Assembly (NCBI GenBank): GCA_002309875.1
Contig: DBYM01000004.1
Location: 2,924-35,408, forward strand
DNA length: 32,485 nt
Direction: 5' to 3'
Origin: Cyanobacteria bacterium UBA1186
GTDB lineage: Bacteria; Cyanobacteriota; Vampirovibrionia; Gastranaerophilales; Gastranaerophilaceae
Position numbers and translations under genes: made by a program
Part shown: positions 3,412 through 22,838 of the stretch, in pieces
Layout: every line of letters starts with the position of its first letter
How positions within the stretch are numbered: position 1 is the stretch's first letter
The notes under the pieces: model-generated
Told to the model about the DNA's origin: nothing
Seen by the model: only the letters and a program-made list of their open reading frames with translations
The model's database searches: none

Positions 3412-4863
3412 ATGAGGGATTATGATTTTTACTATACTCAAGACGGGTCCGTCGGGTTGTATTCTTATGCTGACGACGATGTTTACCATTCCAAATATGG
3501 CGCGCTGACTGAAGCATGGCAAAAATTCGTCATACCCTCAGGTATAACCTCCCTCCTTAACACTAAGGAGAATATCCGTGTATTAGATGTATGCTATGGT
3601 GTTGGATATAATACAAAAGCATTAATGAGTTATGTAATCAGTGCAAATGAAAATCTTTTAAAAATAAAAAATAAAAAAAAATTTATAAATAATTTCAAAA
3701 AATCTTTAAAAAATTTTGGAGAAGAATTAAAAGAAGAAATAAGTATCGACACGATAGATAACAATAAATTTAAATATTGGCTGTCTAAATTATTATTATC
3801 TATCGAAACGGAAGAAGAAGAGACTGTATCTAAAGTTCATATAGACTGTTTAGATATAAATGAAGAATTAGTTAAAATTTCTCCTTATTTAAAAACATTA
3901 ATTACACCCCAGGAAATTTACACACTGATTGTTCCAAAAATTTTTGACTGTTTTGATTTATATTGGAAAATCAAAAATTTGATTTCAATTATTGGTTTAT
4001 TTTTTATGCCACATAACAAGGCAAAAATAACAGAGAAATTAAATTTAAAATTTAATAATGATTATGACAAATCAGACAGGGAGTATCGGATTCATAAATT
4101 CGTAAATGTAATCATAATAGACCAACTCTTAAAACTGTATAAGGACAACTATATAACCAAAGACATATTAAAAGTATTGAAAAATCATGAAAACAGGAGA
4201 TACCTGAATGTCCCCCTGGCCAAATATGCCATTTTAAAGCAGAAAATCAAGTATGATTTTATCTCCCGATTCAATTTAATCGTCAATTTACATAATATAT
4301 ATTATGACTATTTATCTAAACGATATAAAAATGCTAAATTTAAGCAGGTTAGCAGGCTGTTTGACGTGAATTTCTACGTAAATGATGCCAGAAAGACTAT
4401 TTTGCAGTTAGAAGGCGAATATGACTTTATGTTCCTCGATGCCTTCACATACTCTAAGGCGCCCGAGTTATGGACAGTTGAGTTTATTGCTGAACTGTAT
4501 AATAAACTTTCAAGAAACGGGGTTATTATGACCTACTCAACCTCAGCACTTGTCAGAAACACCTTTATAGAAAATAAATTTTATGTCGGTAAAATCTTAG
4601 ATGAAAAAACAGGAAAATTTATAGGAACAATTGCAGCAAAAGAAAAATCAATGATTGAACACCCTCTCTCAAACTATGAATTGGGACTGTGCTCAACAAG
4701 AGCAGGAATTCCATATCACGATACAGGACTTGGTTTGCCAAGAGATGTAATATTGGATAAAAGGGAATTTGTCTTTAAAAACAGTGATTTATTGACCTCT
4801 ACACAATATATAAAAAGACGCTTGCGCAAGAATAACGAGGACGATGATGATGGTGAAGAATAA
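3412..4863 (+). CDS. MnmD/MnmC2-like SAM-dependent tRNA (mnm5s2U34) methyltransferase with large low-complexity insertions
   Basis: TQDGS-x-x-LY...YHS-x-x-GALTEA-x-x-KF; motif I VLDVCYGVGYN; DAR; FLDAF-x-x-x-KAPELWT-x-EF; TYS-x-S-x-x-VR; C-terminal TRAGIPY-x-D as in cyanobacterial-type stand-alone homologues. About 200 extra K/N/I/F-rich residues lie in the middle. The track starts at GTG 3406. Confidence 0.8.
   Translation: MRDYDFYYTQDGSVGLYSYADDDVYHSKYGALTEAWQKFVIPSGITSLLNTKENIRVLDVCYGVGYNTKALMSYVISANENLLKIKNKKKFINNFKKSLKNFGEELKEEISIDTIDNNKFKYWLSKLLLSIETEEEETVSKVHIDCLDINEELVKISPYLKTLITPQEIYTLIVPKIFDCFDLYWKIKNLISIIGLFFMPHNKAKITEKLNLKFNNDYDKSDREYRIHKFVNVIIIDQLLKLYKDNYITKDILKVLKNHENRRYLNVPLAKYAILKQKIKYDFISRFNLIVNLHNIYYDYLSKRYKNAKFKQVSRLFDVNFYVNDARKTILQLEGEYDFMFLDAFTYSKAPELWTVEFIAELYNKLSRNGVIMTYSTSALVRNTFIENKFYVGKILDEKTGKFIGTIAAKEKSMIEHPLSNYELGLCSTRAGIPYHDTGLGLPRDVILDKREFVFKNSDLLTSTQYIKRRLRKNNEDDDDGEE
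3744..3813. repeat. Pair of TATNG-ANN-CNATA palindromic motifs, 57 bp apart
   Basis: TATCG-ACA-CGATA (3744-3756, perfect) and TATCG-AAA-CGGAA (3801-3813, imperfect). Confidence 0.5.
4285..4312 (-). other. Putative Xer recombination site (dif-like, 11-6-11 bp) inside the MnmD-like CDS
   Basis: Minus strand AATAGTCATAA-TATATA-TTATGTAAATT. Spacer plus right arm match B. subtilis dif (TATATA-TTATGTAAACT) at 16/17 nt. The inner left arm CATAA matches the E. coli dif XerC arm. Confidence 0.7.
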
Positions 4864-6136
4864 ATATGATGTAATTATTGCAGGAGGAGGAACATCAGGC
4901 ATAAGTTGCGCCTGGAATTGCGGTAAATTAGGGCTTGAGACATTGCTTGTCGAGCGAAACTCCTTCCTGGGCGGCTCTATAACCTCATCATTGGTTATTC
5001 CGGCAATGAAAACAAGTGAAAATGCGATAAATACCGATTTTTATGATAATTTTTATAATAATTTAAAAAATGTTGGCGGCGCTATTACTTATTCTGACGG
5101 CAATAGAGGCTGGTTTAATCCCGAATTAACAAAGATTATACTTGATTCAATGATGAAAGATGCAAATGTTGATGTAATATTTGAGTCATGTATAGACTCT
5201 ATACAGACAGAGAACAAAAAAATATTATCAGTAAATATTGATACGATATATGATGATAACTCATTAAATAACACAAATATATTATCGCAACCTATCGAAA
5301 CGAAATATGTTGTAGATGCGACCGGCGATTCTAAAATTTTTCAAAAATTAAATTTAGAATTTTTGAAAAAAAAGGAAAATGATTTTCAACCAATAAACTT
5401 AAGATTTATAATGTCTGGAGTAAATACAAAAAAATTCGCAGAATGGATAACAAAATTTGATACGAACAGGGAGGTTACAACAGCCTGTACAGAGGGCAGT
5501 TACACCTATGTATCTACTGCTTACACCTGGGATACCAATAAAAATTGGGCTCTAAGGCCTATATTCAGACGGGCAGTGGAGGATAATGTGCTTAAAGAAG
5601 AGGATACTAACTACTTTCAACTGTTCTCAGTCGCCGGAACACAGGATTCTGTAGCGTTTAATGCCCCAAGATTAACAATCACCGGCCTGAGCCGCTCTGA
5701 TTCTTATATAGAGGCGCGTTCAGCCATATTCAGGCTCTCAAATTTCTGCAAAAAATACCTTAACGGTTTTGAAAATTCATATATATCATCTATTGCAAAT
5801 ACTCTTGGCGTAAGGGTTTCAAACAGAATTCGCGGGAAATATGTATATAGTTATGAAGATTTAATATCAGGTAAAACATTTGACAGACCTGTGCTTGTGT
5901 CAAACTACCCAATTGACATACATTCCGATAAAAAGGATTCGTCAACACTGCAAAAAGTGTATAAAGAGTACCAACTCCCTTTGGAATCGCTTATGTCCGC
6001 CGATTATGAAAATCTATTTGCAATAGGCCGCTGCATTTCTGCCGATTTTAAAGCGCAAGCTGCCCTAAGAATAATTCCTTCCTGCTTTTCGATGGGAGAA
6101 GGGCTTGCTAAGTACCTTGCGGAGATTAAGCACTAA
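4844..6136 (+). CDS. FAD-dependent oxidoreductase (FAD_oxidored/PF12831-like)
   Basis: YDVIIAGGGTSG Rossmann motif; LVER-x-x-FLGG; VVDATGD; GVRVSNRIRGKY; YPIDIH; YQLP-x-x-SL...NLFAIGRCISA...ALRIIP-x-CFSMGEG. Overlaps the upstream gene end. The start is one of ATG 4844/4847/4850 after GAGGA. Confidence 0.85.
   Translation: MMMVKNKYDVIIAGGGTSGISCAWNCGKLGLETLLVERNSFLGGSITSSLVIPAMKTSENAINTDFYDNFYNNLKNVGGAITYSDGNRGWFNPELTKIILDSMMKDANVDVIFESCIDSIQTENKKILSVNIDTIYDDNSLNNTNILSQPIETKYVVDATGDSKIFQKLNLEFLKKKENDFQPINLRFIMSGVNTKKFAEWITKFDTNREVTTACTEGSYTYVSTAYTWDTNKNWALRPIFRRAVEDNVLKEEDTNYFQLFSVAGTQDSVAFNAPRLTITGLSRSDSYIEARSAIFRLSNFCKKYLNGFENSYISSIANTLGVRVSNRIRGKYVYSYEDLISGKTFDRPVLVSNYPIDIHSDKKDSSTLQKVYKEYQLPLESLMSADYENLFAIGRCISADFKAQAALRIIPSCFSMGEGLAKYLAEIKH
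5189..5309. repeat. Three TATNG-ANN-CNATA palindromic motifs / degenerate tandem repeat
   Basis: TGTATAG-ACT-CTATACA (5189-5205); TTATCAGTAAATATTG-ATA-CGATATATGATGATAA (5225-5259, 12/16 arm match); TATCG-AAA-CGAAA (5293-5305). Segments 5221-5252 and 5278-5309 are 23/32 identical, 57 bp apart. Confidence 0.55.
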
Positions 6137-21743: not shown

Positions 21744-22838
21744 TTATTTGCAACTGATAAAAGCATTCAGATAACGCATCAGTTCATTAAACGTAATGTC
21801 ATTAGGAGTATTTGTTCTGTTCTTGAGGTAGTCGGTTATCGTTGACATAATTTCCAAAAACGTACCTTCAGTCAGGTTGCCGTCTAAATAATCGGAATAT
21901 ATGCCGAGCAGGTACGCATATGTATCTTCACCGCCATACATCTTTATCTGAATAAATGCATCTTTAACCTTTTTGTTTTCAAAATTCACATTTAATATGT
22001 CATAATATATTTTTGCATCTTTTAACATGTTCTCCATAATCACTTTTGGCGACTGATAAATCATCATAGTGTCGAAGTAATTCGTGAACATTTCATACAA
22101 ACGTTTCTTATCGTATTCTTTGAAATTGAATTTTGTGACAAAATAATCTTTGAAAAAGAGTTCGATATCCGATTTTTTGCCCTTATATATTGCCTCAAGA
22201 GCAGCCCATTCGTCTTTAATACCGTTAGACTTCAGATAATTCTCAATCAACGCAGGCTGATTTAATTCCCTCTTATCCTTATTCAGGTTGTAGTACAGGT
22301 CTCTGTACGGAATCTGTTCGGTATCAACAACTGTAACCCTGATTTTCTGAAGCATTTTAAAGATATTTGAAGCCTGAAGTTTTTCTTCCTTAATCTGACT
22401 CCAAAAACTATGCAGCAAAATAAACATTGGGTGTTTCTTTTCGATTCCCGACAGACGTTCTCCGTAGATTATTTTTTCATATATAGACTGAGATTCTTTA
22501 GGCAGTCTGAGTTTTGTTTTTGTCCCGTTAAGCAAATATTTGCTTCTTATAGTCCTGATGGCTTTATCGTTTCGCTGAGAAGTCTTTTTATAACACTCAC
22601 ATATGGCGTGTAATAACAATGAAAGGGATAACAGTCTGTTTAAGCCGTCAATAATTGTATATTGCTCAGAAGTACTGCAGAACAGGTACATTACACCAAA
22701 ATCAATGCGATAAGTGAATTGCTCGTCCTCAGACATCAGATCAAGAAAATTCACAAGCCTATTATCAACCTTTGCATACTCCAAAGCCGTTAAAATTTTT
22801 ACACTATTCAAAAACTCTAATAAATTTAGGATTATCAT
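21744..22838 (-). CDS. Degenerate DUF262 (GmrS-like, ParB/Srx fold) domain protein
   Basis: FG-x-M-x-L...YTIIDGLNRLLSLSLLL-x-AI resembles DUF262 IIDGQQRLTT. LYYNLN...L...LIENYL resembles IF-x-x-LN-x-RG...L...DLIKN. No C-terminal HNH (DUF1524) is seen. Confidence 0.6.
   Translation of the reverse strand: MIILNLLEFLNSVKILTALEYAKVDNRLVNFLDLMSEDEQFTYRIDFGVMYLFCSTSEQYTIIDGLNRLLSLSLLLHAICECYKKTSQRNDKAIRTIRSKYLLNGTKTKLRLPKESQSIYEKIIYGERLSGIEKKHPMFILLHSFWSQIKEEKLQASNIFKMLQKIRVTVVDTEQIPYRDLYYNLNKDKRELNQPALIENYLKSNGIKDEWAALEAIYKGKKSDIELFFKDYFVTKFNFKEYDKKRLYEMFTNYFDTMMIYQSPKVIMENMLKDAKIYYDILNVNFENKKVKDAFIQIKMYGGEDTYAYLLGIYSDYLDGNLTEGTFLEIMSTITDYLKNRTNTPNDITFNELMRYLNAFISCK

Follow-up and report, generated by a model that had tools for sequence, protein, structure and literature searches.

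A candidate dif site carried in frame by a predicted tRNA methyltransferase gene in Gastranaerophilales

The window analysed here, a 32,485-nucleotide stretch of a contig from Cyanobacteria bacterium UBA1186 (Gastranaerophilales, an order of non-photosynthetic kin of cyanobacteria), contains an MnmC2/MnmD-like methyltransferase gene that carries a 28-base dif-like site and adjoins an FAD-dependent oxidoreductase gene (Table 1). The methyltransferase exceeded the PF05430 cut-off, and its match to NF033855 (E 3.3e-23), split by two inserts, reached 82.7 bits against a cut-off of 136. The solved MnmC2 3VYW aligned to residues 9-82 and 317-455 (E 1.1e-18), and the site falls in the long insert between these segments. 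Members of the MnmC2/MnmD family methylate nm5s2U34 in tRNA, and the product is a predicted tRNA methyltransferase. A homologue with 58% identity came from Candidatus Gastranaerophilales bacterium. Three orthologues (G059, G054, and G045; L154, L155, and L037) stopped 60-70 residues early, without the C-terminal extension. The share of words recovered from two RNA runs was just 0.05-0.06, which gives no evidence on expression. Elsewhere in the window, positions 21744-22838 on the minus strand matched a GmrSD N-terminal domain just under the cut-off (E 1.5e-7), next to a 213-aa ORF without annotation.

Table 1 Features of the locus, with the related microvirus prophage.
Feature	Position	Strand	Remarks
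MnmC2/MnmD-like SAM-dependent methyltransferase gene, 483 aa, two inserts, carries the site	3412..4863	+	PF05430 E 1.9e-19
Palindrome copy at -545, hypervariable insert 1	3743..3757	.	17.7 bits
Palindrome copy at -488, insert 1	3800..3814	.	15.3 bits
dif-like 11-6-11 site	4285..4312	-	predicted XerC arm 4312-4302, spacer TATATA 4301-4296, predicted XerD arm 4295-4285
Invariant 18-nt core TTACATAATATATATTAT	4288..4305	+	codons L-H-N-I-Y-Y
Degenerate palindrome abutting XerC arm	4312..4326	.	ATCG half kept in relatives including intergenic copies
FAD-dependent oxidoreductase gene (PF12831)	4844..6136	+	constant XerC-side neighbour in family f1; next gene in 28/28 g38 loci
Palindrome copy at +947, inside FAD oxidoreductase gene	5235..5249	.	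14.9 bits
Palindrome copy at +1004, inside FAD oxidoreductase gene	5292..5306	.	18.9 bits, best match in genome
Microvirus prophage of G080, 4.56 kb	G080:C27:7105-11676 (L425)		

Re-reading both strands confirmed what the first-pass annotation had reported, namely an 11-6-11 element that lies in frame within the methyltransferase gene (ORF 3406/3412-4863 on the plus strand) and is translated as NLHNIYYDY. The plus strand reads AATTTACATAA-TATATA-TTATGACTATT and the minus strand AATAGTCATAA-TATATA-TTATGTAAATT; the arms were assigned from the conservation pattern and from published dif sites. The site is single in its own assembly (1.61 Mb, 78 contigs), where the runner-up 28-mer agrees at 21/28 positions. 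The exact 18-nt core was found in 229/301 genomes of the order, as one copy in 228 and as two in a single lysogen (G080), and occurs above chance given that a reversed control pattern hit 0/301. A loose dif pattern with two mismatches recovered nothing over its control. Inverted pairs of dif-like sites with the XerD-type arm inward enclosed about 250-600 bp of non-coding sequence in G037 (L157-L159) and G005 (L160-L161), and two of the G037 interiors resemble each other. These pairs may be miniature elements mobilised by Xer, similar to pdif modules. Several assemblies (G379 at L404 and L409, G293:C11, G387:C47, and L273) are broken or inverted no more than about 250 bases away from the site, which would be expected with elements moving in and out at this position.

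Orthologues of the methyltransferase were matched in 53 of the 61 relatives searched. For codon comparison we used the 30 best loci, consisting of the gene itself and 29 from its genus (50-62% identical). The codons TTA CAT AAT ATA TAT TAT were the same in 30/30, so that all six synonymous choices within LHNIYY are invariant, while a single codon was kept in only 5/156 columns elsewhere in the alignment with at least 90% conserved residues. Related genomes share ancestry, and these and the following conservation figures are counts, not statistical tests. Among the 21 genomes of other families with a match, we read 20 orthologues picked by protein from nine families; the site was in frame in 20/20 and its inner 15 bases were exact in 19/20. 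Changes in the outer arms or spacer of these orthologues altered the peptide to V/G/I-HNIYY, LHNICY, or LHNIHY. Across the order, the site was in frame in the orthologue in 104/105 genomes read, in a set that combines loci picked by protein with loci picked by pattern and does not include G080 or the intergenic cases; the sole miss was a locus cut by a contig end. The stretch ATAA-TATATA-TTATGTAA was 92-100% conserved per position in the 104 genomes, and the XerC arm of the coding copies varied freely outside its inner four bases.

The two inserts differed in how they were constrained. Insert 1 (residues 83-142) had an amino acid identity of 0.33 with the same codon in 0.82 of cases where the residue was kept, compared with 0.52 and 0.61 for the larger insert (161-285) and 0.70-0.75 and 0.50-0.55 for the methyltransferase core. 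The suggestion that the insertion exists mainly to carry DNA signals is only partly right: it suits the behaviour of insert 1, and the larger insert behaves like constrained protein.

Genus g38 separates the site from the gene. The exact 18-mer was present in 0/17 of its genomes, and a variant with one base changed in the spacer was present in 38/38. The g38 methyltransferase has 268-269 codons, is without the insert, and lies on another contig than the site. Of 30 fetched g38 loci, 28 held the spacer variant, in every case just upstream of the FAD oxidoreductase gene; a stop-free frame of some kind crossed 5/28 copies. This persistence between genes, where the methyltransferase has lost its insert and moved, places the constraint on the DNA. 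In G203 and G166 the site likewise lay immediately upstream of the FAD oxidoreductase gene, and in G234 the distance was 1.65 kb; a query with the UBA1186 gene found no methyltransferase in these three genomes. It was intergenic in g38, g44, g34, g46, and most loci of other orders outside family f18. A quick tree placed g38, with moderate support, among the rows of family f1 (SH-aLRT 90, below the 95 mark), and loss of the insert in g38 was therefore likely secondary.

A 16-base pattern matched 82/151 genomes of the class, with one match for the control. By family, matches were found in 28/30 genomes of f12, 8/14 of f18, 3/30 of f13, 0/9 of f15, and 0/12 of f16. Of 12 loci read from other orders, those of the three f18 genomes had the site in the methyltransferase frame; at the other nine, no methyltransferase contained it. 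A Vampirovibrio-like family of a different order thus shares the in-frame position. The eight f18 genomes with the site had the gene intact in five, split in two, and not clearly present in one. Methyltransferase sequence on two short contigs spans the site in G379 (f14), and a named Vampirovibrio sp. contig holds the first half of the gene, ending past the site; named Vampirovibrio and Obscuribacterales records also bear the class-type site. We infer that the in-frame placement is older than the split of two orders. Matches to the class-type site also came from about 2,100 database stretches spread over many phyla. Among 71 class-type loci with enough flank, 11 were crossed by a stop-free frame of at least 150 codons, and of all 120 such loci only two matched the host methyltransferase. 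In other classes of the phylum, 5/78 genomes matched versus 3/78 for the control, which is chance level with the pattern used.

We used GC skew to place the site relative to the replication terminus. In G140, a single contig of 2.02 Mb, skew was positive in 7/7 blocks at 700-840 kb and negative in 6/6 at 842-960 kb, and the site is at 851,890. The opposite switch lay at 1.76-1.84 Mb, where the antipode of the site is 1.86 Mb, and 1/20 blocks genome-wide was off pattern. Cumulative skew in G240 peaked within about 30 kb of the site, with a mixed region at 0.33-1.1 Mb. Ten further contigs had a G-rich left flank in 10/10, and a right flank that was lower in 8/9 and negative in 6/9. Skew switched across the site in G050 and still did so across the g38 sites of G165 and G198; the switch was weak in G166, and there was little or none in G354 and G377 from other orders. 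The contig of UBA1186 had no clean switch, being C-rich on both sides (-0.044 in the 6.3 kb left of the gene, -0.079 and -0.057 to the right), and with a fragmented assembly and a short left flank its own terminus cannot be placed. A terminus at the site by skew thus stands for G140, G165, G198, G050, and most of the ten additional contigs, with its own contig uninformative and G354 and G377 weak. The xerC and xerD genes were near the antipode of the site in G240 and in G103, where skew was sampled in two blocks. We dropped dnaA as an origin marker. It was not opposite the site, lying 287 kb away in G140 (G140:C1:1139007) and 173 kb in G240 (G240:C1:2198071), and was at neither skew switch in G140; oriC and dnaA may thus not be linked in Gastranaerophilales. 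Counts of KOPS in 20-kb samples were too few for polarity.

Three relatives carried prophages at the site. In G080, a member of the same order, two copies of the site enclosed a microvirus of 4,556 bp with genes for a capsid (PF02305, E 5.6e-153), Rep, and a pilot protein, and one half of the methyltransferase gene followed at each end. In G421 and G427, elements of 9,987 and 10,145 bp, respectively, encoded a P2 double-jelly-roll capsid (PF18628/PF25513; Atlas TM 0.79), and that of G421 also an ATPase with a weak A32 match. Each of these two had an intact site at one end and, at the other, a copy in which the XerC arm and spacer were the same and the XerD arm was degenerate (HDIYY). No tyrosine recombinase matched at a meaningful E-value in any of the three elements. 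The prophage junctions point to strand exchange at this position, and we infer that these integrase-less phages entered by host Xer recombination. Integration cut the gene in two, leaving pieces of 130-169 and 179-198 codons, and bore out for these three genomes the expectation that Xer-exploiting elements would disrupt the host gene. The related 10-kb prophages with a P2 capsid belong to a Vampirovibrio-like family (L426, L427, and L255). Because their phage end supplies an in-frame start before the second half of the gene, a split two-piece enzyme is possible there. On other contigs, G080 had several dif-like sites with one mismatch, two of them with common flanks (L414, L416). A second one-mismatch site in G166 (G166:C36:5163, L181) adjoined phage-like genes, terminase- and capsid-like by eye, and is possibly an attachment site.

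The UBA1186 genome encodes an XerC-like and an XerD-like recombinase (TIGR02224 at 313 bits and TIGR02225 at 317 bits, just under the cut-off), and two Xer paralogues were present in 40/41 genomes. FtsK was not found in this genome (84% complete). Searches that were positive in 8/14 control genomes located the FtsK gamma domain (PF09397) in 0/101 genomes of the order and the FtsK motor (PF01580) over the cut-off in 2/121, both partial, with 13 more weak short matches. Outside the order, partial motor matches over the cut-off occurred in 3/5 genomes, so we make no claim of FtsK absence there. The XerD residue matching E184 of E. coli XerD, an FtsK contact according to the consulted part of PMC5052618, was Glu in 3/30 and Lys in 20/30 XerDs. 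Since the same part of that study describes contact residues that diverge among species with FtsK, this pattern is weak support for independence from FtsK.

A palindrome, ATCG-N3-CGAT, flanks the site. Genus g1 has its longer form, (A/C)TATCG-WWW-CGATA(T/G), at about -545, -490, +25, +920, and +975, and g38 has it at about -920 and +740; most of these copies lie within coding loops. The degenerate copy beside the XerC arm supplies a Ser codon TCG in 29/30 orthologues, and its ATCG (positions +26 to +29) was kept in 27-28/28 intergenic g38 copies. A matrix trained on 115 copies from relatives belonging to g1 and g38 put 4 of the top 8 matches in the UBA1186 genome within 1.0 kb of the site, a result not fully independent because the motif was first noticed in the window. 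At 81 loci, some of them near-duplicates, from genera, families, and orders not used in training, it gave 91 matches in 235,753 bases (0.39 per kb versus backgrounds of 0.027 and 0.021), nearly all of these matches being in family f1. Within f1, copies clustered within about 1.2 kb of the site, with an extra copy near 2.2 kb in G165 and G198. Outside f1 the palindrome was not enriched except at +25, and it therefore cannot explain FtsK-independence across the order. Distant copies, when examined, suggested no candidate binding protein. One of these (15.9 bits), at G000:C14:10335, is intergenic and upstream of an ORF reading as FtsZ by eye.

We consider the site very probably dif, where XerCD is predicted to bind and resolve dimers, as the first-pass annotation had proposed; the single copy, the invariant synonymous positions, the skew switch in relatives, the XerC/XerD pair, and the prophages at the site all point this way. 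If instead HNIYY were a protein motif and its palindrome a by-product of AT-rich codon use, LHNIYY in 120/120 top homologues would be explained, as would site codons that are mostly the commonest ones in the host gene. However, comparable L, H, N, I, and Y columns elsewhere vary (invariant in 2/55), arm and spacer substitutions do change the peptide, and both 3VYW and the g38 orthologue are without the segment. The intergenic copies refute this account in practice, and it retains next to no probability. The missing FtsK and the Lys-rich E184 position could also mean that a phage-exploited terminus site serves Xer or another protein in chromosome organisation, such as SMC unloading or decatenation, and not dimer resolution. 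XerD indeed unloads SMC at the B. subtilis terminus (Karaboja et al. 2021, as given in the consulted part of the review PMC11894783). Yet both arms, the 6-bp spacer, and both recombinases have been kept, the prophage junctions point to strand exchange, and archaeal XerA/dif appears to be FtsK-free in the portion of PMC5357621 consulted, leaving a chromosome-organisation role alone improbable.

Under the dif reading, host XerC and XerD would bind the site and resolve chromosome dimers at the terminus predicted by skew, and dif would sit in frame in a loop of the predicted tRNA methyltransferase that tolerates (L/V/I/G)HNIYY. With FtsK not found in the order, something else would have to activate recombination. 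Our preferred guess is an XerC-first reaction, which in family f1 would be steered by a putative protein on the ATCG-N3-CGAT palindromes, much as accessory sequences act at plasmid cer/psi sites. Such accessory control is possible but doubtful, and XerCD that is constitutive or otherwise activated is at least as likely. Somewhat better than even, in our estimate, is that the palindrome is the target of a factor that organises the terminus or regulates transcription and plays no part in Xer control, with XerCD constitutive or activated by an unrecognised protein. The restriction of the motif to one family when FtsK is missing order-wide favours such a factor, as do scattered distant copies, of which one precedes ftsZ; on the other side, copies bracket the site at 0.4-1.2 kb, reappear in different genes in g38, and include a half-site abutting the XerC arm. 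The full proposal, in which Gastranaerophilales have a two-recombinase XerCD/dif system without FtsK, a palindrome-bound putative protein controls it in f1, the main gut family, and dif has been in frame since before two orders split, is possible but has less than even odds in our estimate. The host gene seems expendable or able to move, and its in-frame carriage of the site may therefore be a tolerated legacy and not an adaptation.

These results provide a candidate dif, which could also mark the terminus, in a class whose phylum yielded none in an earlier survey: in the consulted part of Kono et al. (PMC3025954), no dif was found in the five Cyanobacteria tested. They also suggest that a chromosome-maintenance site can ride in frame in one enzyme gene across orders, and annotation filters that discard coding hits would miss such a dif. 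If dif has been in frame since before the two orders split, every integrating Xer-exploiting phage breaks the host gene. The prophages connect lysogeny with the loss of a predicted tRNA-modifying enzyme. A recombinase pair, a site, and a candidate accessory motif make it possible to test how dimers are resolved by bacterial XerCD when FtsK is missing. If palindrome control is true, it would be a chromosomal counterpart of cer/psi accessory control with the palindromes written into protein loops. A literature search covering few subscription papers found none on dif, intragenic dif, or FtsK loss in Gastranaerophilales or Vampirovibrionia.

In the parts of Carnoy & Roten (PMC2731167) and Kono et al. 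(PMC3025954) consulted, the dif/XerCD systems of Proteobacteria and Firmicutes share with this one a 28-bp 11-6-11 site with a conserved XerD arm and a variable XerC arm, present in single copy near a skew switch, together with XerC and XerD. The Bartonella quintana dif (Table 1 of PMC2731167, as far as consulted) has a 16-nt core, CATAATATATATTATG, in common with the site. Published dif sites are non-coding in 96.3% and 93.92% of cases in the consulted sections of these two surveys, respectively, and the coding cases named there are sporadic, in hypothetical, phage, or one transporter gene; their supplements list coding-region cases that may bear on novelty. The site described here, in contrast, is carried in the reading frame of a single conserved gene throughout one order and in part of another, and unlike dif/XerCD activated by FtsK gamma, it belongs to an order in which FtsK was not found.

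The prophages resemble IMEXs, which in the consulted parts of reports on dif-type double-jelly-roll Vibrio prophages (PMC12715192) and enterogokushoviruses (PMC7062461) are integrase-less, non-tailed, and situated between the host dif and a dif-like phage copy; the degenerate XerD arm of the phage copies in G421 and G427 is a further likeness. They extend Xer-exploiting microviruses and double-jelly-roll prophages to Vampirovibrionia and differ from known IMEXs in these hosts and in splitting a host enzyme gene. As described in the consulted portion of the review PMC5357621, cer is XerC-catalysed and controlled by accessory DNA (PepA/ArgR/ArcA), and cer/psi do without FtsK, as archaeal XerA/dif appears to and as we propose for Xer recombination here. 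Unlike plasmid cer/psi, the site is chromosomal, and in place of a 180-bp block the motifs proposed as accessory are short palindromes at 0.4-1.2 kb on either side; unlike archaeal XerA/dif, there are two recombinases and not one. Short repeated sites concentrated at the terminus also recall MatP/matS and XerD/XDS (PMC11894783, consulted in part), but the palindrome differs in being limited to about 1-2 kb around the site and in lying in coding loops.
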